The notes below the pieces were generated by a model. The model was not told where the DNA came from. It saw nothing but the letters and a program-made list of their open reading frames with translations, and searched no databases. The position numbers and the translations under genes were made by a program. A stretch of DNA of 40,386 nucleotides from the IMG/VR virus record IMGVR_UViG_649989946_000002; one strand, written 5' to 3'. This document shows, piece by piece, positions 1-40,386 of this stretch. Within the stretch, counting starts at the first letter, position 1, and each line of letters begins with the position of its first letter. Source of the DNA: a virus. Taxonomy: Duplodnaviria; Heunggongvirae; Uroviricota; Caudoviricetes.

Positions 1-423
1 TCACGGGGCTGATGTGCCGGCATCGCTAGCTGACTTCTTCGCGGCTGCCGTGTTCTGTGCCACCGCGGACGCGTTACGCGCCACCTCTTCCACCATCAGT
101 TCAAAACGGCGCAGTGCCTCAGGACGGGCATCATCCTCCGTCATGGCACCGAGAAAATCATTCAGCGTACCGGGTCGGGAATCTTCATACACGGTGATGG
201 TCCCGGCATGTGACGGCGGGAATCCTTCCACCAACAGAATAACGCTGTACTGACCGTACTCAACGTCCATGCTGTAACGCCCGGCTTCATCCGGATTTTC
301 TGAGGCCAGCGTGTTCACCACCACCGTGGTACTGTTACGTTTTGCTTTCAGCTGGATTGTGCAGTTCTGTACCGGTTTTCCTCGTGCCGTCTTTCAGTAC
401 ACCTGAAATCTTTACTGCCATAT
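1..423 (-). CDS. stf: Side tail fibre protein Stf, N-terminal portion; gene runs off the window start; reading frame broken near 382-387
   Basis: ATG at 423 gives MAVKISGVLKDGT then the frame shifts; the continuing frame (ORF 1..324) reads VVVNTLASENPDEAGRYSMDVEYGQYSV..., matching the lambda Stf N-terminus as recalled. Confidence 0.7.
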
Positions 424-432
424 TCACCCCAC

Positions 433-459
433 AAAAAAGCCCGCCTGAACCGGCGGGCT
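433..459 (-). terminator. Rho-independent terminator between lom and stf
   Basis: Minus strand reads AGCCCGCC-GGTTCA-GGCGGGCT followed by TTTTTTGT. Confidence 0.6.
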
Positions 460-485
460 GTCATAACACTGTGTTACCTGGCTAA

Positions 486-1085
486 TCAGAATTTATAACC
501 GACACCCACGATGAAACCGTCAGTGCGCCAGTCGCCACTGCCGGAACCTTCATAAGCGACATCAACGGCCACGGATTCGGTCGGGTTAAACTGCACGCCA
601 GCCCCCCACGCCAGAGACGTGTTGCTGTGGCGACCGTCATCACTTCCGATCAGCACATCGTGCGTTTTCCCCGTATTGTCGGTCACCTGCAGATAATCCC
701 CGGAGAAAGTCGACACACGGCTGTAAGCCACACCCGCCATCGCATACGCGCTGAACCATTCATTCACGCGCACAGACGGCCCCGCCATCACGCTGAACCA
801 GCGGTTACGCACGGAATCTTCATGCCAGCGGGTATCGCTGTAATGCGTTTTTTGCTCATCTTCAGCGTTGGCATAACTGAATGACGTAATCAGCCCCAGC
901 GTGTCCGTAAACTCATAACGGTATTTCACGTTAATCCCGTTCAGATTATCGCTGCCGGGAGCGTTCGTACGGGCATGAAGATACCCTGCGCTCAGTGTGG
1001 CCTGCTGCTCAGACGCCCATGCAGGCGCACCGGATACGGCCAGACAGATGGCGGTGGACAAAATGGCTGCACAAACTTTACGCAT
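486..1085 (-). CDS. lom: Outer-membrane beta-barrel protein Lom
   Basis: 199-aa ORF with signal peptide ([24 protein letters not shown]), ends in aromatic residue (GYKF); position directly downstream of J as in lambda. Confidence 0.9.
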
Positions 1086-12553: not shown

Positions 12554-12949
12554 TTATTGCATTCTGGCCAGGCCGCGCTCTGTCATTTCAGCTGCCACAC
12601 CGGCAGAGACACGGAACGCCGTTCCCGGCAGCACAAATGCCACAGCCTCATCCCGCGTGGCGTGAAGTGCATCAGTATGCAGCGTCACCAGTGCCACAAC
12701 CGTGACCAGATCAGCCGTATCAGTCACGGTATCCGGCTGCGCTGATACAACCTCATTTTCATGTCCGGTCAGCACATTTTCCGGGCTGAGAGGGGTATCC
12801 TGACCGGCAGTGTCGCCCGTGTCATCAAGCTCTTCTTCCAGCTCTGCCACACGGAGCGCCAGTTCTTCTTTCGTCCCCGTCAGGCTGATATCACGGTTCA
12901 GTTGTTCACCCAGCGAGCGGAGACGGGCAATCAGTTCATCTTTCGTCAT
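12554..12949 (-). CDS. FI: DNA-packaging accessory protein FI
   Basis: ORF 12554..12988; start taken at MTKDELIARLRSLGEQLNRD (132 aa) as in lambda FI. Confidence 0.85.
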   Translation of the reverse strand: MTKDELIARLRSLGEQLNRDISLTGTKEELALRVAELEEELDDTGDTAGQDTPLSPENVLTGHENEVVSAQPDTVTDTADLVTVVALVTLHTDALHATRDEAVAFVLPGTAFRVSAGVAAEMTERGLARMQ

Positions 12950-12990
12950 GGACTCCTCCACAGAGAAACAATGGCCCCGAAGGGCCATGA

Positions 12991-14016
12991 TTACGCCAGT
13001 TGAACGGACACGAACTCATCAGGATCAGCCAGCAGCATCAGCGGTGCTGACTGAATCATGGTGAACTCTCGCGCCGGATCGCCGGATGTCTTCCAGTTTT
13101 TCGGATAACGGGGAGACGCATTAATACCCTCACTCAATGCATCCGCATCCTGAATACAGCCATAGGTGCGCAGACCGCGTGCATGAGTGTTACCCAGCAC
13201 CATCGTGTCGTCCGGCAGGAAGTTCTTTTTGACGCCGTTTTCCACGTACTGTCCGGAATACACGACGATGGCCACATCGCCATACATCCCCTTATAGGAC
13301 ACCGCTTTACCCAGGTCTTTCACCGCTGTCTCCAGCTCGGAATGAGAGCCGCGACGGGTATCCAGCTTCTCCTTGACGGCTTTGAAGGAACGGAACAGCG
13401 CCCAGCCTTTCGGATCAAACACGATGATATTCACCACGCCGCTGGCGTTCAGCGCGTAGGCTTCGATATCGTCGGTCGGGTCATACGTGGACTTGTCACG
13501 CTTGCTCCACTCCGTGCCGCCGGACTGCGTGATGTTGTTCGCCGCACTGCGGCCCATATCCACCTCAACCGGATCGAAGGCTTCACCGGTCATGGTGTAT
13601 TTGCCCTTGAGCACGGCAGAAACTGCCTGCATCTCTTCGACCTGAGCAATGGCCAGCTCTTCGTCACGCATGTTCTGCAGGATGATGCGACGGCGGCGGT
13701 AAGCCGGGTCCGCCAGATTCTGCGGATCTTCATCCGGCAGGCGATGCAGGGTCATCTGCGGATTCACTTCATGCTTGGGTTTGACATATCCCGGCGTAAA
13801 TTCAGAGGTGGAGCCGCCACGGGAACGGATAACCTCACCGGAAACAATCGGCGAAACGTACAGCGCCATGTTTACCAGTCCCGGAATTTGTGAGAGATAG
13901 ACTTTCTCCGTAGTGAAGGGATAGCTCTCACGGAAAAAGAGACGCAGAAACAGCGGATCAAACTTAAATTTCTGCTCATTTGCCGCCAGCAGCTGGGCGG
14001 TTGTGTACATCGACAT
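12991..14016 (-). CDS. E: Major capsid protein E
   Basis: ORF contains MSMYTTAQLLAANEQKFKFDPLFLRLFFRESYPF...; 341 aa from the MSMYT start. Confidence 0.95.
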   Translation of the reverse strand: MSMYTTAQLLAANEQKFKFDPLFLRLFFRESYPFTTEKVYLSQIPGLVNMALYVSPIVSGEVIRSRGGSTSEFTPGYVKPKHEVNPQMTLHRLPDEDPQNLADPAYRRRRIILQNMRDEELAIAQVEEMQAVSAVLKGKYTMTGEAFDPVEVDMGRSAANNITQSGGTEWSKRDKSTYDPTDDIEAYALNASGVVNIIVFDPKGWALFRSFKAVKEKLDTRRGSHSELETAVKDLGKAVSYKGMYGDVAIVVYSGQYVENGVKKNFLPDDTMVLGNTHARGLRTYGCIQDADALSEGINASPRYPKNWKTSGDPAREFTMIQSAPLMLLADPDEFVSVQLA

Positions 14017-14071
14017 AAAAAAATCCCGTAAAAAAAGCCGCACAGGCGGCCTTTAGTGATGAAGGGTAAAG

Positions 14072-14404
14072 TTAAACGATGCTGATTGCCGTTCCGGCAA
14101 ACGCGGTCCGTTTTTTCGTCTCGTCGCTGGCAGCCTCCGGCCAGAGCACATCCTCATAACGGAACGTGCCGGACTTGTAGAACGTCAGCGTGGTGCTGGT
14201 CTGGTCAGCATCAACCGCCAGAATGCCAACGGCAGCACCGTCGGTGGTGCCATCCCACGCAACCAGCTTACGGGTGGAGGTATCCAGCATCAGCGGGGTC
14301 ATTGCAGGCGCTTTCGCACTCAATCCGCCGGGCGCGGTTGCCGTATGTGCCGGGTCACTGTTGCCCAGCGGCTGGTAATGGGTAAAGGTTTCTTTGCTCG
14401 TCAT
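14072..14404 (-). CDS. D: Head decoration protein D
   Basis: [39 protein letters not shown]..., 110 aa from MTSKE. Confidence 0.9.
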
Positions 14405-14413
14405 AAACATCCC

Positions 14414-15019
14414 TTACACTGGTGTGTTCAGCAAATCGTTAACGGCATCAGATGCCGGGTTACCTGCAGCCAGCGGTGCCGGTGCCCCCTGCATCAGACG
14501 ATCCAGCGCAGTGTCACTGCGCGCCTGTGCACTCTGTGGTGCAGCTGCCAGAATGCGGCGGGCCGTTTCCACGGTCATACCGGGGGTTTCGGCCAGCACG
14601 CGGGCCTGTTCTTCGCGTCCGTGAGCCTCCTCACAGTTGAGGATCCCCATAATGCGGCTGTTTTCTGCCGCAACCGCAGCGGTGATCTGCGCGTTCACGT
14701 CCGGCTGCGCCGCGCTGGCGTTTTCGCCCTCCGTCGCTGGCACCACGTCAGTAACGTCAGTCTGCGAAGCAGTGGCTGAAACAGTTGTTGATTGAGTCTC
14801 TTTGGTCATTCGCCCTCCTGAGAGACGGGATTTACGCGCATCCAGTGCATCACGCATGACGGTGATCGCATCGGTGCTGTTAACAAGTTCATCAGCCAGT
14901 CCGGCATCAATGGCCTCCTGACCGCTGTACACTGCAGCCTCGGTATCCAGCACAGCCTGCACAGACAGGCCGGTATATGCCGACACCTTCTGTGCAAACA
15001 TCTGGCGGGTTGCGTCCAT
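14414..15019 (-). CDS. Nu3: Scaffolding protein Nu3 (in-frame C-terminal 201 codons of C)
   Basis: Internal Met MDATRQMFAQ... 201 codons before the C stop, as in lambda where nu3 shares the 3' end of C. Confidence 0.65.
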   Translation of the reverse strand: MDATRQMFAQKVSAYTGLSVQAVLDTEAAVYSGQEAIDAGLADELVNSTDAITVMRDALDARKSRLSGGRMTKETQSTTVSATASQTDVTDVVPATEGENASAAQPDVNAQITAAVAAENSRIMGILNCEEAHGREEQARVLAETPGMTVETARRILAAAPQSAQARSDTALDRLMQGAPAPLAAGNPASDAVNDLLNTPV

Positions 15020-20543: not shown

Positions 20544-20928
20544 ACATCCCGGTTTCTTGACCTTCCCTCCCTCCCCGCACAGAACTGGCGAGCGTGAGGG
20601 ACCAATATGTGAGCCATAAATGCCTTATCTTCAGAAATGTAGTTGGTATCCGAATAGAACGATATTGTAAATTCACCTAAATACGAGGCATTGCTGTAGT
20701 TGAATTGCAGTACTGTATTAGCCTGACAGTGACAGAATACGATATTGACTCTGTCACTTGTGAAATGGTCAGAATGGTTAGCAGTTATGGTGATCAGTCA
20801 ACCACCAGGGAATAATCCTTCGTATTCTTATCGTGCTTTACTAACGCGGCCTCAATTGCCCTGTGATCTTACCCAGCAATAGTGGACACGCGGCTAAGTG
20901 AGTAAACTCTCAGTCAGAGGTGACTCAC

Positions 20929-21228
20929 ATGACAAAAACAGTATCAACCAGTAAAAAACCCCGTAAACAGCATTCGCCTGAATTTCGCAGTGAAGCCCTG
21001 AAGCTTGCTGAACGCATCGGTGTTACTGCCGCAGCCCGTGAACTCAGCCTGTATGAATCACAACTCTACAACTGGCGCAGTAAACAGCAAAATCAGCAGA
21101 CGTCTTCTGAACGTGAACTGGAGATGTCTACCGAGATTGCACGTCTCAAACGCCAGCTGGCAGAACGGGATGAAGAGCTGGCTATCCTCCAAAAGGCCGC
21201 GACATACTTCGCGAAGCGCCTGAAATGA
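20929..21228 (+). CDS. insE: IS3 OrfA (InsE-like, HTH/leucine zipper)
   Basis: [54 protein letters not shown]... Confidence 0.9.
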
Positions 21229-22091
21229 AGTATGTCTTTATTGAAAAACATCAGGCTGAGTTCAGCATCAAAGCAATGTGCCGCGTGCTCCGGGTGGCCC
21301 GCAGCGGCTGGTATACGTGGTGTCAGCGGCGGACAAGGATAAGCACGCGTCAGCAGTTCCGCCAACACTGCGACAGCGTTGTCCTCGCGGCTTTTACCCG
21401 GTCAAAACAGCGTTACGGTGCCCCACGCCTGACGGATGAACTGCGTGCTCAGGGTTACCCCTTTAACGTAAAAACCGTGGCGGCAAGCCTGCGCCGTCAG
21501 GGACTGAGGGCAAAGGCCTCCCGGAAGTTCAGCCCGGTCAGCTACCGCGCACACGGCCTGCCTGTGTCAGAAAATCTGTTGGAGCAGGATTTTTACGCCA
21601 GTGGCCCGAACCAGAAGTGGGCAGGAGACATCACGTACTTACGTACAGATGAAGGCTGGCTGTATCTGGCAGTGGTCATTGACCTGTGGTCACGTGCCGT
21701 TATTGGCTGGTCAATGTCGCCACGCATGACGGCGCAACTGGCCTGCGATGCCCTGCAGATGGCGCTGTGGCGGCGTAAGAGGCCCCGGAACGTTATCGTT
21801 CACACGGACCGTGGAGGCCAGTACTGTTCAGCAGATTATCAGGCGCAACTGAAGCGGCATAATCTGCGTGGAAGTATGAGCGCAAAAGGTTGCTGCTACG
21901 ATAATGCCTGCGTGGAAAGCTTCTTTCATTCGCTGAAAGTGGAATGTATCCATGGAGAACACTTTATCAGCCGGGAAATAATGCGGGCAACGGTGTTTAA
22001 TTATATCGAATGTGATTACAATCGGTGGCGGCGGCACAGTTGGTGTGGCGGCCTCAGTCCGGAACAATTTGAAAACAAGAACCTCGCTTAG
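21225..22091 (+). CDS. insF: IS3 OrfB (InsF-like DDE transposase; made as OrfAB by -1 frameshift)
   Basis: 288-aa ORF overlapping orfA in the -1 frame; DDE integrase-core motifs (WAGDITYL..., HTDRGGQY..., [17 protein letters not shown]). Confidence 0.9.
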
Positions 22092-22556
22092 GCCTGTGTC
22101 CATATTACGTGGGTAGGATCACTGAATGCTTCCAGAGATACTTGATGTTCTATACATGCAATTACAACATCCGGGTAACCCATCGAAATGGTGCTATTAA
22201 GCATAGTTTTTACACGAACCTGCTCCTGGGAGGGGGCATCAATGTATTGATCTTTATGCATTTTGTCGCTCCATTCGTTTGCTCTTCACTTGCGGCTAAA
22301 AATATAACGTCAAATCACTCAGCATGAAAGAGTGAAAGTTTCAGCGCGTTTCCCTTACATAATCTGTCGTTTGTATTCTCTTCAGGCATACCGGAAAGAC
22401 TAGGTATTGTCACACAACCAATACCATCGACAATCGAGATTTATATCTATTCGGTAATGTTTAAATATAACAAAACCCCGTAAAAACGAGGTTTATGGGT
22501 AATTTGTATTGTTGAATAGCATCTGATGAGAAATTGATGCTAATACTATAAACATA

Positions 22557-22733
22557 CTAGATTAAATCAATCTTGATATCATAGCTTTCAAGACCAGTCA
22601 TTTTTTCCCGTGCAGTAAACTGGATACTGGTAACTTCTTTCCCGGTCTTTTTCTTAAGCTCAATGATTTTTTTTGTTATATATTCAGAAATATCTGCTTC
22701 TGTTTTTGTTTTTAACTCTTCAATGTTCATCAT
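22557..22733 (-). CDS. gnsB: GnsB-like small protein (GnsA/GnsB family)
   Basis: MMNIEELKTKTEADISEYITKKIIELKKKTGKEVTSIQFTAREKMTGLESYDIKIDLI with AGAGGA RBS. Confidence 0.75.
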   Translation of the reverse strand: MMNIEELKTKTEADISEYITKKIIELKKKTGKEVTSIQFTAREKMTGLESYDIKIDLI

Positions 22734-22902
22734 TTCCTCTTTTAGTCTGTTATGACTTTCTTGGTACACAGTAGTGTCAATTATATGGAGCAAACGTATA
22801 AAAGATAAGATGAAACATCGCAATAATCAACATACGACGGTCTAAATTTCACACAAACAGATAAAGATGATTATCATTTATTATCAATGCATTAGAATCA
22901 AA

Positions 22903-23058
22903 TCAATTCAAGAGTCTCATTGCTGCTTCCAGAATTTCTTCTGAAGTTACATGTCGATCCGCTGCTACATAAATGACTTTATGATCTCCGGTCAGAGATG
23001 GAAACCCTGCAGCCATTACAGTGAGGTGTGTTGTTTCGCCATTTGGGTATTCACGCAT
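22903..23058 (-). CDS. ynfN: YnfN-like small protein (51 aa)
   Basis: MREYPNGETTHLTVMAAGFPSLTGDHKVIYVAADRHVTSEEILEAAMRLLN; position between gnsB and cspI as in Qin; start inferred. Confidence 0.5.
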   Translation of the reverse strand: MREYPNGETTHLTVMAAGFPSLTGDHKVIYVAADRHVTSEEILEAAMRLLN

Positions 23059-23173
23059 GATGGTGTTAACTCCGGTCATCACTGGCACTACCATTGCTGG
23101 TTCAGAGTTAAAAAAACTATTATTTTTTCATATGTTACCGTAATATGTGAGTATCCATCGACTAGACACTAAG

Positions 23174-23196
23174 CAAAAAAGCTCCCGAAGGAGCCT
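23174..23196 (-). terminator. Rho-independent terminator downstream of cspI
   Basis: Minus strand GGCTCC-TTCG-GGAGC followed by TTTTTTGC. Confidence 0.5.
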
Positions 23197-23401
23197 TCAT
23201 TTTCACTTTCTTAAATCTAACGACAGATGGCTAACATTTAAGTATTGTGAAATATTATCAAATGTAATCATCATTGATTTACAAAAGATACATTTTGCCC
23301 CGAAAGGATTTCTGTCAGAAACATCAAAAGATGATGTTCTATACTGAGAACCATGGCAACACGGGCATCTAAAGTGAATATGGTTTGTAATATTTTCTAC
23401 C

Positions 23402-23614
23402 TCAAAGTGCCACTACATGAACAGCTGCAGGGCCTTTAGGTCCGTTCTCAATACCAAATTCGACTTCCTGATTCTCAGTTAACGTTTTGAAATCGTTGCT
23501 CTGAATAGCTGAGAAATGCACAAACACATCTTTGCTACCATCTTTCGGCGTGATGAAACCAAAACCTTTTTCAGGGTTAAACCATTTCACTAAACCAGTC
23601 ATTTTGTTAGACAT
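23402..23614 (-). CDS. cspI: Cold-shock protein, CspI-like
   Basis: 70-aa [41 protein letters not shown]... with RNP1/RNP2 motifs. Confidence 0.9.
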
Positions 23615-23977
23615 TATTATTACCTTTTGAAGAAGTTAGCCCTTGGGCAGAATGGTCCGAAAAAAAATATCAGAGAGAAAAACCAACAAGGAAATCTCAA
23701 GAGGTACAAATAATAAAATTATAACAATGACTGCTTCAGATAATTTTGTAACAAACCAGAACACCATTAACGCATGATTAACCAACCATAGCAAGGATTA
23801 CTTTTGTAAAGAAAAACACACGAATGAAACAATAGCTTTATTTATTAATAAAACGTGTCATTCTGTCTAATGACCTTTTATCTTACCCTTAAGATTTCAA
23901 GGATTTTGACTCATGGAAGAGTCCTTTTTATTTAAATTTCACATTCAGCGCTAAAAATAATCCGATTTAATATTAAT

Positions 23978-24470
<493 letters not shown>

Positions 24471-24474
<4 letters not shown>

Positions 24475-25004
24475 TGTTCTATCCCCCAGCAGGTTAATGC
24501 ACTCTCCTGGTCACGACGAATAACCTGACCGTAACAATTATTTGAACGAATGCGGCAATCACGTCCACCGTCCTTTATCCACCAGCGAATCGCCTCGCAT
24601 GCGCCTTTACGATCACCGGCATTAAGCCGCTTATAAAACGTCGACGGAAAACACTTACCAGGGCCAATGTTATAGGGACAGAATGACGCGATACCGGCTT
24701 TCTGTGGCTCGGTCAGTGGAACTTTTATATTGCGCTCCACCCATGCCAGCGCCTTATCCCGCTCAATGGCGTTAACCTGGGCGCATTTTTCCTTCGACAG
24801 CTTCATTTCCGGTATGACGGGCTTACCATCCACCATTGTGGCACCACGACAGATGGTCCATATACCGGAACCATCGCGGTATGCCGTAGTGTGGTTACCT
24901 TCTTTTTCATCCAAAAACTGGTCGAGAATATCAGGCGCAGGCGCACCGACGGCAATCAGTGCCAGAACAGCAGCCGACAGGCCGTATCTGATTTTAGTAT
25001 TCAT
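24471..25004 (-). CDS. SAR endolysin (lysozyme with signal-arrest-release N-terminus), RrrQ/R21-like
   Basis: 177-aa ORF MNTKIRYGLSAAVLALIAVGAPAPDILDQFLDEKEGNHTTAYRDGSGIWTICRGAT... (T4-lysozyme-like catalytic E-8aa-D-5aa-T region after a weakly hydrophobic SAR helix). Confidence 0.9.
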
Positions 25005-25059
25005 GGATATTTATCAGGATGCTACCAATGAAAGATACTGGAAAGCCAACTGCAAAAAG

Positions 25060-25374
25060 CTAACAACCCGTAATCGAGTTATCTGAACTGTTAATTTTTA
25101 TGGTATACCGAGCCTCTGAACAGGGTCGCGTTTCTGGCAACAGCTCGTCCCCTTCACATAACCCGGCAGCAACATCCAGGAAGACCTGTCTGATGCTCCT
25201 TCTGGCTGCTGCCTCATAAAACTCCAGCGCGGCACCTTCAACATGGTCCAGCGAGATGTCCAGGTCAAAAATTTCACCGTCAAAGCGTTCTTTGTCCTGT
25301 AAGGCTACAGTTACCGTAACTTTATTCTCAAAATTACGGACTCCTTTCACAACCAGTTCATAGTCTTGAGTCAT
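25060..25374 (-). CDS. YdfR-like protein (DUF1327), sited between holin and endolysin
   Basis: 104-aa ORF MTQDYELVVKGVRNFENKVTVTVALQDKERFDGEIFDLDISLDHVEGAALEFYEAAARR... Confidence 0.7.
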   Translation of the reverse strand: MTQDYELVVKGVRNFENKVTVTVALQDKERFDGEIFDLDISLDHVEGAALEFYEAAARRSIRQVFLDVAAGLCEGDELLPETRPCSEARYTIKINSSDNSITGC

Positions 25375-25378
25375 TGGA

Positions 25379-25594
25379 TTACTCTCCTCTCGCAGCCTTA
25401 CGCCTGTCTTCTTTAATCTTGAAATAAAGATTTGTCAGATACGTCAGCAGGCCAAAAACCAGGCTACCCAGCACACCGATTGCAGCCCACTGTGACGGAG
25501 TTACTTTATCGAGTAACTGCAATGCCCAGAAACCAGCATTACCCGCCGATGTGCCATAGGCAACACCTGTTGTTAACTTATCCATTGATTTCAT
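25379..25594 (-). CDS. Phage-21-type pinholin (S21/EssQ-like) with dual-start motif MKSM
   Basis: [71 protein letters not shown]; two TM segments, charged C-terminus; ORF track extends it to 25669. Confidence 0.85.
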
Positions 25595-25810
25595 ATCCTC
25601 ACCCCGATGTACACGGATGGTGCAATATGTTTGAAAAGATCGGAGTCTACGGGGTAGTTTTGACAGCACACGTTGTTCTCAACGGCGCTAAAAAAACATA
25701 CACATTAAAAATGTGGGTAATTATTTTGAAAGAAAGTCATATATAAAATAATAATACGAGAAATGTTTTCATATTTAGTGTACTGTATACGGCCATTTAT
25801 ACAGGAAAAG

Positions 25811-25984
25811 CCTATGTCAGAACGTAAAAACTCAAAATCACGCCGTAATTATCTCGTTAAATGTTCCTGCCCAAACTGCACCCAAGAGTCAGAACACAGT
25901 TTTTCAAGAGTACAAAAAGGTGCCCTTTTGATCTGCCCTCATTGCAACAAAGTATTCCAGACAAATCTTAAAGCTGTAGCCTGA
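25811..25984 (+). CDS. Small zinc-ribbon protein (CxxC...CxxC), possibly YnfU-like
   Basis: MSERKNSKSRRNYLVKCSCPNCTQESEHSFSRVQKGALLICPHCNKVFQTNLKAVA (56 aa); followed by a hairpin terminator. Confidence 0.55.
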   Translation, partial: PMSERKNSKSRRNYLVKCSCPNCTQESEHSFSRVQKGALLICPHCNKVFQTNLKAVA

Positions 25985-26041
25985 TTGATTTTATTAGTAA
26001 CAAGTATTTTTTATATTTTAATAATATATTTAAAGCAGATA

Positions 26042-26066
26042 ATAAAAAACCCGCCTGAGCGGGTTT
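26042..26066. terminator. Bidirectional hairpin terminator (zinc-ribbon gene on + and cspB on -)
   Basis: AAAAAACCCGC-CTGA-GCGGGTTT with A/T runs on both sides. Confidence 0.5.
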
Positions 26067-26347
26067 GAGATTGTGGTGCTTTTTGTGGGAGTCATCCACT
26101 TACGCACTTTGTTTTGCCATGCCAGCAGTTAGCTTCTGCTGTAAAACTATTCATGCAGCAAACCTGCACTTCACCACAATGGTTAGCATACTTTTCCTGA
26201 TTAAGATTTTGCCAAATATGCTAGCCATTGTTTCATGTATTGGACCTCCTTACTTTTTATTAAAGAGATCCAATATTCACTACTCTGTCCGTATCTCTAC
26301 TCAGGCATCAGCCTTCTTCGTTATCGTATACAGACGAGCGATGAATT

Positions 26348-26563
26348 TTAATCAGTAATGATGACATTTGCTGCTGCAGGACCTTTAGCACCACTCTCTA
26401 TAGAGAAGGTAACCTTTTGACCTTCAAATAAGGTTCGATAATTATCATTCTGAATCGCAGAAAAATGCACAAACACATCTTTACTACCATCAACAGGAGA
26501 AATAAAGCCGAAACCTTTATCAGCGTTAAACCATTTTACTAAACCAGTCATTTTATTTGACAT
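26348..26563 (-). CDS. cspB: Cold-shock protein, CspB-like
   Basis: 71-aa [70 protein letters not shown]... Confidence 0.9.
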
Positions 26564-26862
26564 TCTACATTCCTTAACTTGAGCCTTTCGGCATAAATGG
26601 TTTGCATAACAGAAACGACTTCGTACTTAATTGGAGAGACTCAAAGAAGGAATAAGTGAATAACACCTGAAATGAGAACTGCTTTAGTAAACTACTTCGT
26701 ATATCGTCTGTTCTTCAAACCGACGCAATCATTAACGCATAGTTGAACATATGAAGCAATGTTTATTTTAGACATCCAGCCGTCTTCAACCCCATCAAAA
26801 AACTATAGCTTTCTTCAGGAACGTGTGTATAGTGCGCCAAGTTATCAGTATTAAGGAATTTT

Positions 26863-27075
26863 TTGTCCCGTAAAATGACAGGAATTGTCAAAACCTTTGA
26901 CGGCAAAAGCGGCAAGGGTCTTATCACCCCATCCGATGGTCGTATCGATGTCCAGCTTCATGTTTCAGCGCTCAATCTCCGCGATGCAGAAGAAATTACC
27001 ACCGGATTACGCGTGGAATTTTGCCGGATAAATGGTCTGCGTGGCCCTTCAGCTGCCAATGTTTACCTTTCATGA
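26863..27075 (+). CDS. cspF: Cold-shock-domain protein, CspF-like (divergent)
   Basis: 70-aa [73 protein letters not shown]. Confidence 0.85.
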
Positions 27076-27374
27076 GCTATATTAAAGCTTTAATTTCAGG
27101 CCCCATCGGATCACACATGGAGAGTTTTTATGAATAACCCCGTCTGTCTTGATGACTGGTTGATTGGCTTTAAAAGCTTATGCTGTACTTTGGCCGTAAT
27201 AGCTCTGCTAATAATATAATAAGCAGACTCATTGTGTTTAGGGACATTGTACTGGAAGAAAACATTTTAAACATCAGGCAAATAACCAAGTCACCAGCTA
27301 AATAATAAGTTAACAGACATGAGTCCCGGGATGAGATTCAACATTACCATTGCCCCATTTAAAGCACAAAACCC

Positions 27375-27405
27375 GCTCATCAGCGGGTTTTCTACTTTTT
27401 CTTAA
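27375..27405 (-). terminator. Hairpin terminator downstream of Q (tR'-like position)
   Basis: AAAACCCGCT-CATC-AGCGGGTTTT with flanking A/T runs, about 200 nt downstream of the Q stop on the minus strand. Confidence 0.45.
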
Positions 27406-27605
27406 CGTCGGGTATACAAAGCCCATCGTTGAAAAATTTTATCCATATTTTTTGAAAAATGCAAACATCATGTCGCCATCTTCAGCAAAAATCATTTATC
27501 TCGTCACCTTCCTCAATTGCGCTTCCGCGTATGCTTCTTCCTGCCAGCACTTTGTTACCAGTTTACCAATGACGTCCGCATACCCCTTATACCACTGATA
27601 ATCGG

Positions 27606-28277
27606 TCAGGTCTGGTACCAGCTTCTGGACATGACGTCGTGCCAGCGTGGTCGGTAAACGACTAAACCGGTTTCCATTACAACGCCCACAAATCTTATAT
27701 ACCGGTACGCCATGAAACCGGGTTCTTTTTCATCCAGAACAATCCCTTTACCCTTACACCCTCTGCACGCTGTGCTGGCTTCGCCCTTACCATGGCAATG
27801 CTGACATAGTTCCTTCACCCATTCTTCCTTGATTACAGATTCCCCGCGTCTGTAGTGTTTCACCACTTCGCGCAATACATTATAAAATCCCGTACCTGAA
27901 CAATGCTCACAGCGAGCCTTACTTGCCGCAGACCTGGAGTAATCAGCAAAGGCAAAACTCACGAGGTAAGGAATAATCTGTAACCGGATTTCTTCACTCA
28001 ATTTGTTCAATGTCGGGTTATCCAGTGCCATCGCGTAATTTAGCAGGCCTTCAATCGCAAACTGAGGGTCCTGAACACCAACTTTTGCCAGAAATAAGGC
28101 CAACCCAAGTGGTGCTTTCGACTGCACCATCCCCTGCGCTGCCATTACATCCGTAATTGTTAAACAACCGGTGCCTGTCGCTGGAGCGTCATCGCTCAAT
28201 TTTGGAGATTTTGGGGAGTAATATTTTGGTAAGGCTTCAAGGTTCATGCTCGTTCTCCACTTACGCCAGTACGCCAA
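27606..28277 (-). CDS. Late-gene antiterminator Q (QuuQ/phage-82-type, zinc-binding)
   Basis: 223-aa ORF with CxxC...CxxC cluster (CEHCSGTG...CQHCHGKGEASTACRGCKGKG); position between nin-like genes and lysis cassette. Confidence 0.75.
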   Translation of the reverse strand: MAYWRKWRTSMNLEALPKYYSPKSPKLSDDAPATGTGCLTITDVMAAQGMVQSKAPLGLALFLAKVGVQDPQFAIEGLLNYAMALDNPTLNKLSEEIRLQIIPYLVSFAFADYSRSAASKARCEHCSGTGFYNVLREVVKHYRRGESVIKEEWVKELCQHCHGKGEASTACRGCKGKGIVLDEKEPGFMAYRYIRFVGVVMETGLVVYRPRWHDVMSRSWYQT

Positions 28278-29097
28278 TTGCCAGCGCGCGATCGATAAAA
28301 CGAAATATCAGCTCCAGTTGGGAGCCATACTTATCTTCAAATGCCACTGTATCCGTATGCAGCTCGTTGTGATGCTTTCTGCACAAAGGCAACACAAAGA
28401 GATCATGTGCTTTTGTTCCCATTCCGCCCTGCCCGTGACCAATCAGATGATGCGGATCGTCGGCTGGCATACCGCAGCAAGCACACGGCTGTGTCTTAAC
28501 CCAACGTGTGTATTTCTCCTTAACCCAGCGGCGACGTTTAGGCAGCTTCATGAAAGATTCCGGAGACTCTGGATCAACGGTGATGCTTACCACCGTCTTT
28601 TCCTGTGGTGATTTTTGTTGCTGGTGGGCGTAAGGCAACGGTGCAAGATTTTTTGTGCGTTGTTTCAATATGCTGGTGGCGGTCTGCTCTCCCGGTACGA
28701 TGTCGCTTTCGCGGTACACCGAGCAGATTTTTTCCGCTGGTAATCCCAGCGAACGACGCGATACAGCCTCAGGTAGTGCATCCACCACCTGATTGCAGAC
28801 CGCCCACCAGGATAATTCAGCCAAAGATAATTCCCGCTCCTGCGTACCGCTTATTGCGTGACGGATGACGTCAATCACCCATGCTGTCAGATTTTGTTGA
28901 GCAAGCAGCTCCAGTGATTCCGATGTCTGGTCACGCAGTTGGTTGTCGCAGTGCCAGCACAACACCATTGCGCCGGTACCATAACGGTGAATGACTGTTT
29001 CAGTGTGATGGTAATCGCCATTAGGCCACTGGCAGGATGTAACATGACGTAATAGCCAGTCGGACAATGCGCCAACGCCGCCAGCAGCACGAATCAC
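28261..29097 (-). CDS. YdfU-like DUF968 protein with C-terminal HNH-like motif
   Basis: 278-aa ORF; C-terminus CACCGMPADDPHHLIGHGQGGMGTKAHDLFVLPLCRKHHNELH; ATG overlaps the upstream ORF stop (ATGA). Confidence 0.65.
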   Translation of the reverse strand: MIRAAGGVGALSDWLLRHVTSCQWPNGDYHHTETVIHRYGTGAMVLCWHCDNQLRDQTSESLELLAQQNLTAWVIDVIRHAISGTQERELSLAELSWWAVCNQVVDALPEAVSRRSLGLPAEKICSVYRESDIVPGEQTATSILKQRTKNLAPLPYAHQQQKSPQEKTVVSITVDPESPESFMKLPKRRRWVKEKYTRWVKTQPCACCGMPADDPHHLIGHGQGGMGTKAHDLFVLPLCRKHHNELHTDTVAFEDKYGSQLELIFRFIDRALAIGVLA

Positions 29098-29348
29098 CCG
29101 TTCGTTACTAAAAACGGCAGCAATGTTTTGTCTTCCGCCAGCGGCTGGCGAACGGCAGGAACGACTCCGGATGGCAGATTACGCATGCTTTTTGGTTCCG
29201 GTTCCACCAGCACTCGAGGATTATGAAATATCTGTATGGATTCACGGCCCGGCTTAAGGACCACCAGCCCAAGCTCAGGCACCAGAACAGGTCTAAGTAA
29301 TACCCGCACGTTACCTCCAGATCCGTTGCTGGAAAGTGCGGGACGCAC
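29094..29348 (-). CDS. Hypothetical protein (84 aa), possibly the N-terminal part of the DUF968 gene
   Basis: ORF whose stop overlaps the DUF968 ATG; low-complexity sequence, weak support. Confidence 0.3.
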   Translation of the reverse strand: MRPALSSNGSGGNVRVLLRPVLVPELGLVVLKPGRESIQIFHNPRVLVEPEPKSMRNLPSGVVPAVRQPLAEDKTLLPFLVTNG

Positions 29349-29589
29349 GTGGTGGGCGTTCGGAATAAGGCAGCCTGACAGAGATTATCCAGTGCCGATA
29401 GTCGAGACTGAGAGCTTTCTTAACCTCGAACCCGCGCCTGCGGTAAGAATGAATCAGCCATTCGGCCTGTTCTGCAGTGCATGGAGGGTGCTGGAACCAT
29501 TCAGACTTGAATGCGTGAGAATACCGCCCGTGCGTGCAGGCAAGAACGGGCGAATTATCAGAATTGTAATATTTTGCGTTGCGTGCCAT
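29311..29589 (-). CDS. Hypothetical protein (92 aa)
   Basis: ORF MARNAKYYNSDNSPVLACTHGRYSHAFKSEWFQHPPCTAEQAEWLIHSYRRRGFEVKKAL...; nin-region position. Confidence 0.4.
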   Translation of the reverse strand: MARNAKYYNSDNSPVLACTHGRYSHAFKSEWFQHPPCTAEQAEWLIHSYRRRGFEVKKALSLDYRHWIISVRLPYSERPPRASRTFQQRIWR

Positions 29590-29655
29590 CGGTTTTCTCC
29601 GGTGGCACGGTGTTACTCAGCGGGAGTTCAGCCCCGCGCAAGATTGTAGATGAGT

Positions 29656-33600: not shown

Positions 33601-33969
33601 TCTCCTTGCCTTCCGGCACTCGCGACAGATTATGTTTAGACGACTGTCGTAGCGACGTATTTCTCCGTCAGGTAATGACCAGATAAGGTCCGGATCAACC
33701 ACAGCAGGTTTCTTCACCTTTGCCCTCGAGAGTTTTTTGCGGGCGTTTTGCCAGTCCTTACGCGCCTGTTCAGACGGGAATAACCCGTAACCAGAGCTGT
33801 ATACATCGCCACTGGCAACCAGCTCTCTGGCCAGAACGCTCATCAGATATCTTGTTGCCCCAGTTTTAGCTTCCAGTTGTCGTAACGTCTCGCGCCCACT
33901 CTGGCGTACGAGTTCCACCACCTGCCCTTTAATTTTTTCCCGCTCTTCTTGTGTAAAAACTTTTGCCAC
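33550..33969 (-). CDS. Hypothetical replication-module protein (position of a helicase-loader gene); C-terminus may be altered by the adjacent IS
   Basis: 139-aa ORF MAKVFTQEEREKIKGQVVELVRQSGRETLRQLEAKTGATRYLMSVLARELVASGDVY...; last codons lie in the IS-proximal sequence. Confidence 0.4.
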   Translation of the reverse strand: MAKVFTQEEREKIKGQVVELVRQSGRETLRQLEAKTGATRYLMSVLARELVASGDVYSSGYGLFPSEQARKDWQNARKKLSRAKVKKPAVVDPDLIWSLPDGEIRRYDSRLNIICRECRKARRSRLLLTPSCNVPFEPF

Positions 33970-37915: not shown

Positions 37916-38890
37916 ATGAGTAAAGTCTTTATTTGCGCCGCTATTCCTGACGAACTGGCAACAAGGGAAGAAGGCGCTGTGGCTGTAGCCACAGCCATTG
38001 AAGCTGGCGACGAACGCCGTGCTCGAGCAAAATTTCACTGGCAATTCCTGGAACATTATCCGGCTGCTCAGGACTGCGCTTATAAATTTATTGTCTGCGA
38101 GGATAAACCTGGCATACCCCGCCCTGCCCTCGATTCATGGGATGCTGAATATATGCAGGAAAACCGCTGGGATGAGGAGTCTGCTTCTTTTGTCCCGGTT
38201 GAGACTGAATCCGATCCGATGAACGTCACTTTTGACAAGCTGGCCCCTGAAGTACAGAACGCTGTCATGGTTAAGTTCGACACATGTGAAAACATCACCG
38301 TTGATATGGTTATTAGCGCACAGGAATTGTTGCAGGAAGACATGGCAACATTCGACGGACATATCGTTGAAGCGTTGATGAAAATGCCAGAAGTTAACGC
38401 CATGTATCCGGAGCTTAAGTTGCACGCCATTGGGTGGGTTAAGCATAAATGTATTCCTGGTGCTAAATGGCCCGAAATTCAGGCAGAGATGCGCATCTGG
38501 AAAAAACGTCGCGAAGGTGAACGCAAGGAAACCGGAAAATACACGTCTGTTGTTGATCTCGCCCGCGCCAGAGCCAATCAACAGTACACTGAAAATTCAA
38601 CAGGAAAAATCAGCCCGGTCATTGCTGCCATTCATCGCGAATACAAGCAGACATGGAAAACACTGGATGACGAACTGGCCTACGCTCTCTGGCCTAGTGA
38701 TGTGGATGCCGGAAACATTGACGGCAGCATCCATCGCTGGGCAAAAAAGAAGTTATCGACAACGACCGCGAAGACTGGAAGCGTATCTCGGCATCAATGC
38801 GCAAACAGCCTGATGCCCTTCGCTACGACCGCCAAACTATTTTTGGCCTTGTCCGTGAGCGTCCGATCGACATTCACAAAGATCCCGTAG
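37916..38890 (+). CDS. YdfE-like protein, N-terminal part of a large leftward-operon protein (frame break at 38743-38748)
   Basis: MSKVFICAAIPDELATREEGAVAVATAIEAGDERRARAKF...; GAGG RBS; sequence after ...SIHRWAKK looks out of frame. Confidence 0.6.
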   Translation: MSKVFICAAIPDELATREEGAVAVATAIEAGDERRARAKFHWQFLEHYPAAQDCAYKFIVCEDKPGIPRPALDSWDAEYMQENRWDEESASFVPVETESDPMNVTFDKLAPEVQNAVMVKFDTCENITVDMVISAQELLQEDMATFDGHIVEALMKMPEVNAMYPELKLHAIGWVKHKCIPGAKWPEIQAEMRIWKKRREGERKETGKYTSVVDLARARANQQYTENSTGKISPVIAAIHREYKQTWKTLDDELAYALWPSDVDAGNIDGSIHRWAKKKLSTTTAKTGSVSRHQCANSLMPFATTAKLFLALSVSVRSTFTKIP

Positions 38891-40386
38891 CACTGAACAA
38901 ATATATCTGCGAATACCTGACGACAAAGGGCGTGTTTGAGAATGAAGAAACAGACCTGGGCACTGTTGATGTTCTCCAGTCATCAGAAACACAAACTGAT
39001 GCAGTGGAAACTGAGGTATCTGATATCCCAAAAAATGAAACCGCGCCGGAAGCTGAACCATCTGTAGAGCGTGAGGGGCCGTTCTATTTCCTCTTCGCAG
39101 ATAAGGACGGAGAAAAATACGGTCGCGCAAACAAACTCTCTGGTCTGGATAAGGCACTGGCTGCTGGCGCCACTGAAATCACAAAAGAAGAATATTTTGC
39201 CCGAAAAAATGGCACATACACGGGCTTACCGCAAAATGTAGATACCGCTGAAGATTCAGAACAACCAGAGCCGATAAAAGTTACCGCTGACGAAGTAAAC
39301 AAAATTATGCAGGCAGCCAATATCAGCCAGCCTGACGCCGATAAGTTGCTTGCTGCATCACGTGGTGAATTTGTTGAAGGGATTAGTGACCCGAATGATC
39401 CGAAATGGGTTAAGGGGCTCCAGACCCGCGATTCTGTGAACCAGAACCAGCATGAATCGGAACGGAACTACCAAAAAGCGGAACAAAACAGTCCAAATGC
39501 GTTACAAAACGAGCCAGAAACGAAACAGCCTGAACCAGTAGCGCAACAGGAAGTGGAAAAAGTCTGCACCGCCTGCGGTCAGACCGGCGGCGGCAACTGC
39601 CCTGATTGTGGCGCGGTGATGGGCGACGCAACATACCAAGAAACATTCGATGAAGAGTATCAGGTTGAAGTTCAGGAAGATGATCCGGAGGAAATGGAAG
39701 GCGCTGAACATCCACACAAGGAGAACACTGGCGGCAATCAGCATCACAATAGCGATAATGAAACTGGCGAGACGGCAGATCACCCAATTAAGGTGAACGG
39801 TCATCACGAAATCACATCCACCAGCAGGACGTGTGACCATCTAATGATCGACCTTGAAACCATGGGAAAAAATCCTGATGCCCCGATCATCTCAATAGGT
39901 GCAATATTTTTCGATCCGCAAACCGGAGATATGGGACCGGAATTTAGTAAGACTATCGATCTGGAAACTGCTGGCGGAGTCATTGATCGGGACACCATTA
40001 AATGGTGGCTTAAGCAATCACGCGAAGCGCAATCTGCCATTATGACCGATGAAATCCCGTTAGATGATGCACTGTTACAATTGCGAGAATTTATCGACGA
40101 AAACTCCGGTGAATTTTTTGTTCAGGTTTGGGGAAATGGAGCCAACTTCGACAACACGATTTTGCGCCGTTCATACGAACGGCAGGGGATCCCCTGCCCG
40201 TGGCGTTACTACAACGATCGCGATGTACGCACAATCGTTGAGCTGGGGAAAGCCATAGACTTCGATGCCAGAACGGCTATTCCATTCGAAGGTGAGCGCC
40301 ATAATGCACTTGATGACGCCCGTTACCAGGCAAAATACGTTTCAGTTATCTGGCAAAAACTGATCCCGAGTCAGGCTGATTCTTAA
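38797..40386 (+). CDS. C-terminal part of the same protein, carrying a DnaQ-like DEDDh 3'-5' exonuclease domain
   Basis: Motifs LMIDLETMG (Exo I), VWGNGANFD (Exo II), HNALDDARYQAKY (Exo III); frame open upstream of the Met back through the A-run at 38743-38748. Confidence 0.7.
   Translation: MRKQPDALRYDRQTIFGLVRERPIDIHKDPVALNKYICEYLTTKGVFENEETDLGTVDVLQSSETQTDAVETEVSDIPKNETAPEAEPSVEREGPFYFLFADKDGEKYGRANKLSGLDKALAAGATEITKEEYFARKNGTYTGLPQNVDTAEDSEQPEPIKVTADEVNKIMQAANISQPDADKLLAASRGEFVEGISDPNDPKWVKGLQTRDSVNQNQHESERNYQKAEQNSPNALQNEPETKQPEPVAQQEVEKVCTACGQTGGGNCPDCGAVMGDATYQETFDEEYQVEVQEDDPEEMEGAEHPHKENTGGNQHHNSDNETGETADHPIKVNGHHEITSTSRTCDHLMIDLETMGKNPDAPIISIGAIFFDPQTGDMGPEFSKTIDLETAGGVIDRDTIKWWLKQSREAQSAIMTDEIPLDDALLQLREFIDENSGEFFVQVWGNGANFDNTILRRSYERQGIPCPWRYYNDRDVRTIVELGKAIDFDARTAIPFEGERHNALDDARYQAKYVSVIWQKLIPSQADS

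Follow-up and report, generated by a model that had tools for sequence, protein, structure and literature searches.

An apparent frame break at codon 13 of a prophage side tail fibre gene is probably an artefact of an error-rich draft contig

Introduction

Is the side tail fibre gene stf at the edge of this lambdoid prophage really interrupted shortly after its start codon, or does the interruption exist in the sequence record alone? The initial annotation reported a frame break 13 codons into the gene and pointed out that lambda PaPa has a frameshifted stf as well. In that laboratory phage stf is split by a frameshift into orf-401 and orf-314 (PMC9659904), and a comparable natural lesion in an Escherichia coli prophage was thereby implied.

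The window, i.e. the whole stretch of DNA analyzed here (40,386 nucleotides), is part of the draft WGS contig ADUK01000015.1 (384,963 bp; assembly GCA_000165655.2), with the stf fragment lying at the beginning of the contig. It contains a Qin-site lambdoid prophage in reverse orientation, in which the late operon Nu1-A-...-H-M-L-K-I-J runs on the minus strand and is followed by lom and then by the start of stf. The genes int and xis were found outside the window. Both window ends coincide with stop codons of the terminal open reading frames (TGA at 3-1 on the minus strand, TAA at 40384-40386 on the plus strand), indicating that the window represents a predicted prophage region trimmed at the boundaries of called genes.

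Results

The stf locus and its reading frame as written

The gene order J-lom-stf of the window is the order found in annotated relatives, so that the broken gene occupies the position of a lambdoid Stf. Between lom and stf a strong terminator-like hairpin was observed, which is annotated as a terminator in the phages Ayreon and mEp460; it is part of the context of the locus and plays no role in the stf break. The coordinates of all features are summarized in Table 1. Alignment with the annotated Stf starts corrected the position of the start codon, as the initial annotation had placed the ATG at 423, off by 2 from the actual A. From there the minus strand reads ATG GCA GTA AAG ATT TCA GGT GTA CTG AAA GAC GGC AC[G] AGG AAA ACC ... 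TAA, where the base in brackets is the one at issue. Translation yielded MAVKISGVLKDGT, followed by 15 out-of-frame codons (RKTGTELHNPAESKT) and the TAA, while recognizable Stf sequence (GKPVQNCTIQLKAKRNSTTVVVNTL...) resumes in another frame and reaches window position 1. Translation, open reading frames and alignments thus agree with the initial annotation on the frame break after codon 13, on the continuation of Stf in the frame of ORF 1..324 and on the stop of the original frame 15 codons later. The stf product as written gave no match in a Pfam domain search.

Table 1. Coordinates of the stf locus, of its neighbors and of the single-base differences found in the window and in the adjacent host DNA.
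Feature	Position in window	Strand	Description	Evidence
J	4632-1153	minus		ORF list
lom	486-1085	minus	Ail/Lom outer-membrane protein; intact upstream neighbor, fixes the identity of the locus	ORFs and annotated relatives
Terminator-like hairpin	438-459	minus	between lom and stf; 8 pairs (7 G-C), then T6	identical in relatives
stf start codon	419-421	minus	true ATG, A at 421	aligns with annotated Stf starts of phages 640R1, PhiR30_1 and Kati, prophages VG1046-3E9 and STEC276, and lambda orf-401
First private insertion	383	minus	1 nt, minus-strand G (plus-strand C); nucleotide 39 of stf, in the third position of codon 13	alignments
Premature TAA	335-337	minus	in the shifted stf frame; product of 28 aa	translation of the window
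Rest of the Stf N-terminal (PF08400) coding sequence	1-382	minus	+1 frame relative to the ATG, down to the window end	ORF 1..324 and repaired product
Second private insertion	5-8	minus	1 nt, CCC to CCCC; 23-26 nt from the contig end	alignments with phages and prophages
Homopolymer deletions (about 14)	38748, 33160, 31692, 31686, 31371, 29114, 27730, 27436, 26864, 24395, 23128, 23116, 11948, 6601		nearly all in runs of at least 6	comparison with near-identical prophages
Genes split by homopolymer deletions, intact elsewhere	6601 (L); 11948 (Z-like tail gene); 24395 (Rz); 27730 (Q antiterminator); 29114 (ydfU)
Further genes split by homopolymer deletions, intact elsewhere	31686 and 31692 (flxA); 38748 (exonuclease)
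Host-flank deletions	outside the window		xis A7 to A6; int A5 to A4; rspA C4 to C3; upstream of rspA A6 to A5	comparison with four genomes

Two private insertions in stf

The cause of the frame break was located by alignment with three intact phages (640R1, PhiR30_1, Kati), with two near-identical prophages (of E. coli VG1046-3E9 and STEC276) and with lambda. It is a single extra G at window 383, GGCAC[G]AGGAAAACC; across this site the window reads GGCACGAGGAAAACC, and GGCACAGGAAAACC without the extra base. The inserted G sits between C and A (context C-G-A) and extends no homopolymer, in line with the initial annotation, which had described the break as lying outside any simple homopolymer. 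Deletion of the extra G restored a continuous frame, the product of which was identical at 138 of 139 positions to the intact 1176-aa Stf shared by the prophages of VG1046-3E9 and STEC276 (WP_000279149.1).

A second private single-base insertion, absent from the initial annotation, was found 375 nt downstream of the first. It shifts the stf frame again and creates the TGA at the window end. No other window-private single-base insertions were observed. With the two inserted bases removed, the product matched PF08400 (prophage tail fibre N-terminal) over positions 1-134 of 134 with an E-value of 1.3e-73 and 245.8 bits (curated cut-off 26.6). Together with the gene order, this full-length match confirmed the naming of the gene as stf. 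As written, no continuous full-fibre reading frame is present, the frame being broken at 383 and again at 8-5; the rest of stf lies beyond the contig end and is absent from the record.

Beyond window position 1 the contig continues for only 18 nt, in which it still matches the intact relatives. The distance to the contig end is thus about 400 nt for the first insertion and about 25 nt for the second. Ending inside stf, the contig marks a place where the assembly broke within a multi-copy gene: in complete E. coli genomes, the 5' part of stf was found at up to 13 places per genome by the 60-mer search described below. In 520 nt around stf, 0 private substitutions were counted next to the 2 private indels, which fits error and not evolution; the T at window 28 is common to VG1046-3E9 and STEC276, and the G at window 18 is common to PhiR30_1 and Kati. 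Real decay would be expected to produce mostly substitutions.

Search for the insertion allele

A 60-mer centered on the insertion hit 8,621 places, distributed over 3,103 of the 5,426 complete E. coli genomes, as well as 165 phage records, and none of these matches was exact. The best matches all showed 98.3% identity, meaning that the inserted base is missing from them. Using an exact 23-mer with the insertion, no match was obtained in viral, species-representative genome and metagenome contig collections, while the control 22-mer without the extra G had at least 120 matches in viral contigs. The exact 107-aa fragment encoded by window positions 324-1 is on record for one contig only, again ADUK01000015.1 of assembly GCA_000165655.2. 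Judged by these sequence searches, the extra-G allele is private to one draft contig.

Single-base indels across the prophage

Over the whole window, about 16 single-base indels were counted in 40.4 kb, namely about 14 homopolymer deletions and the 2 insertions in stf. Their character became most visible in the comparison of window positions 22122-29646 with strain VG1046-3E9: along 7,532 nt we found 0 substitutions and 7 single-base deletions, all of them in A/T runs of at least 6. About 20-50% of the runs of at least 6 were one base short and the loss tracked run length, the affected share being approximately 20-30% for reference runs of 6, 2 out of 7 for runs of 7 and 2 out of 4 for those of 8. 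Shorter runs in the window showed almost no single-base deletions, and none in the alignments with VG1046-3E9 and STEC276. Among the genes split in this way (Table 1), the tail gene L is broken by a T6 to T5 change and the Z-like gene by a G6 to G5 change; both are otherwise about 99% identical to intact relatives.

One of the homopolymer differences has to be read separately. The T7 to T6 change at 38748 leaves a 324-aa N-terminal exonuclease fragment (window 37916-38890), and an identical fragment is encoded by at least 24 further public contigs (41 index blocks), some of them likewise with fragmented gene calls. Rather than being a private error, the difference at 38748 may reflect a true state that is widespread, or a miscall that recurs.

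Further differences to relatives were of another kind. In the tape-measure gene H, in-frame 3-nt indels were found at window 7456 (GGC unit) and 8769 (ACC unit); they preserve the frame and seem to reflect genuine variation in the length of the tape measure gene. The IS3 copy at window 20864-22125 has another insertion point and the opposite orientation compared to the two closest prophages, which also differ from each other in their IS3 site, giving three insertion points within about 180 bp. Either a hot spot or a local rearrangement or misassembly accounts for this placement. Compared to E. coli ET745, about 2 kb are missing at window positions ~33610-33619, between a DUF977 gene and the region of an ISEsa1-like transposase; in the ET745 locus (12778-14758) the missing part holds a decayed methyltransferase gene and hypothetical pseudogenes.

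Host DNA on the same contig

Via the 324-aa exonuclease fragment, 8.5 kb of host flank just outside the window became accessible (ADUK01000015.1, positions 40405-48908). Compared to four mutually concordant genomes, this flank carries 4 more private homopolymer deletions. The core gene rspA was called as 362 aa versus 404 aa, and the integrase as two pieces of 329 and 87 aa. The density of private indels amounted to 1 per 2.1 kb in the host flank versus 1 per 2.5 kb in the prophage. Extrapolated, such a density corresponds to thousands of frameshifts per genome and is incompatible with a living E. coli. Private 1-nt indels thus exceed substitutions in this record, essential genes and host core genes included, and the contig-wide indels are the signature of base-calling or consensus error. 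Prophage decay as the source of the bulk of the window indels was ruled out by the 0 substitutions against 7 indels in 7.5 kb and by the equal density in host core DNA.

Discussion

An artefact at a contig end

The stf frame break is very probably a base-calling or assembly artefact, that is, one base too many in the consensus sequence of a draft contig of low quality. The insertion is present in the record, unique to the record, close to the contig end and surrounded by an assembly-wide error signature. The extra G itself is probably one of the errors of the record. It is the only non-homopolymer insertion in the approximately 49 kb examined and in this respect unlike the dominant error mode, so that it was the context, and not the type of change, that led to its assignment as an error. 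As for a systematic miscall at a methylation motif, inspection showed neither a Dam (GATC) nor a Dcm (CCWGG) site across the insertion, and the stretch contains no second non-homopolymer indel that might reveal a miscall motif.

From the position of the two insertions we infer a course of events involving the contig end and a collapsed repeat. The assembler would have failed to pass stf, a gene with many near-identical copies per E. coli genome, and the contig would have stopped 18 nt past the window for that reason. Contig ends usually have the poorest coverage and consensus quality, and two spurious single-base insertions would have entered the final ~400 nt. The true stf would then possess a continuous frame and encode a normal Stf N-terminal collar domain.

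Weighing the alternatives

A real mutation private to this strain appears unlikely to us, even though several observations would suit it. It would mean that a spontaneous +1 change at codon 13 inactivated stf, that the particles lack side fibres and adsorb via J, like lambda PaPa, and that the insertion at window 8-5 came later, as decay of an already dead gene. Inactivation of stf would be tolerated, since the gene is non-essential in lambdoid phages; in laboratory lambda it is itself frameshifted (PMC12617516, PMC9659904). The fibre is attached to the tail by a collar made of Stf residues 1-94 (PMC12617516), and a break as early as codon 13, removing this collar, would amount to a clean null. 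Moreover, the insertion is not of the homopolymer-deletion type which dominates the errors of the record. The prophage also contains an IS3 copy, and its location, the Qin site, often harbors decayed prophages. These points have to be set against an allele seen in no other sequence searched, two private indels accompanied by zero private substitutions in 520 nt, and a break only about 400 nt from the contig end. The equal density of private 1-nt indels in host core DNA weighs on the same side, as these indels cannot all be real. It is rather improbable that the extra G is real and that the prophage represents an E. coli stf null by spontaneous non-homopolymer insertion, an independent natural parallel to lambda PaPa. 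If so, such a knock-out would suggest that side fibres are lost in the wild too. It would nevertheless be a minor and unsurprising inactivation of a dispensable prophage gene, with nothing new on tail fibres or recoding.

We give practically no weight to a functional frame break, in which a +1 shift at the newly created rare AGG (ACG AGG A) would allow low-level synthesis of full-length Stf, or in which stf would be switched by phase variation. In E. coli AGG is a rare codon, and rare AGGs are able to induce a +1 shift. That the insertion puts such a codon at the very place where slipping into the +1 frame would bring Stf back into register is circumstantial. A P-site ACG, however, cannot re-pair in the +1 frame (CGA), and even a successful shift would be followed by the second frameshift 375 nt downstream, which still truncates the product. 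As a programmed frameshift site the sequence was rejected: the insertion occurs in none of thousands of relatives (0 alleles in the 8,621 E. coli places, the 165 phage records and the three contig collections), leaving nothing conserved and nothing selectable, and by inspection ACG AGG AAA ACC contains no in-register X XXY YYZ heptamer. A phase-variable contingency locus based on slippage was likewise rejected, as no tandem or simple-sequence repeat exists at the site, no tandem repeat was found in window positions 1-600, and the inserted G stands between C and A.

Returning to the artefact as the preferred explanation, its consequences exceed stf. Since the window derives from an error-rich draft contig, each of its frame breaks (stf, L, Z, Q antiterminator, Rz, exonuclease) should be taken as a probable artefact unless independently supported. 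The natural stf lesion comparable to that of PaPa, as implied by the initial annotation, did not hold up against a private allele about 400 nt from a contig end and indel errors all along the contig, host core genes included.

Comparison with known systems

The closest relatives of the locus show what an undisturbed version looks like. The prophages of VG1046-3E9 and STEC276 and the phages 640R1, Kati and PhiR30_1 share the J-lom-terminator-stf layout of the window, and across the lom-stf junction the window DNA is 98.7-99.2% identical to the three phages. The stf frame is continuous in all five, whereas the window alone has one additional nucleotide at 383 and another at 8-5.

Compared to the known indel errors of draft assemblies, with their homopolymer miscalls and poor contig ends, the record shows the same length-dependent loss from runs, free of substitutions and alike in prophage and host. 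The stf break likewise lies about 400 nt from a contig end, within a multi-copy gene. It differs in being a non-homopolymer insertion.

The similarity to lambda PaPa is clear with respect to the gene and to the possible outcome. Lambda PaPa, in comparison to Ur-lambda, has a single-base frameshift in the same gene, which likewise follows J and lom, and if the break in the window were real, the result would be the same: no side fibres and viability through J (PMC12617516, PMC9659904). The initial annotation rightly stated that the PaPa frameshift lies at a different place. The lambda break falls between the end of orf-401 at 20855 and the start of orf-314 at 21029, about 1.2 kb past the beginning of stf; the PaPa lesion is thus found at about codon 400, the one in the window at codon 13. 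The alignment check that the initial annotation had proposed was run against lambda, which was found normal at the insertion site, with the extra G absent at the position of window 383. Identity of the two lesions was therefore rejected. Furthermore, the lesion of lambda PaPa is a verified heritable mutation, whereas that of the window is private to an error-rich draft contig and probably not real, and for this reason the parallel between the two is probably empty.
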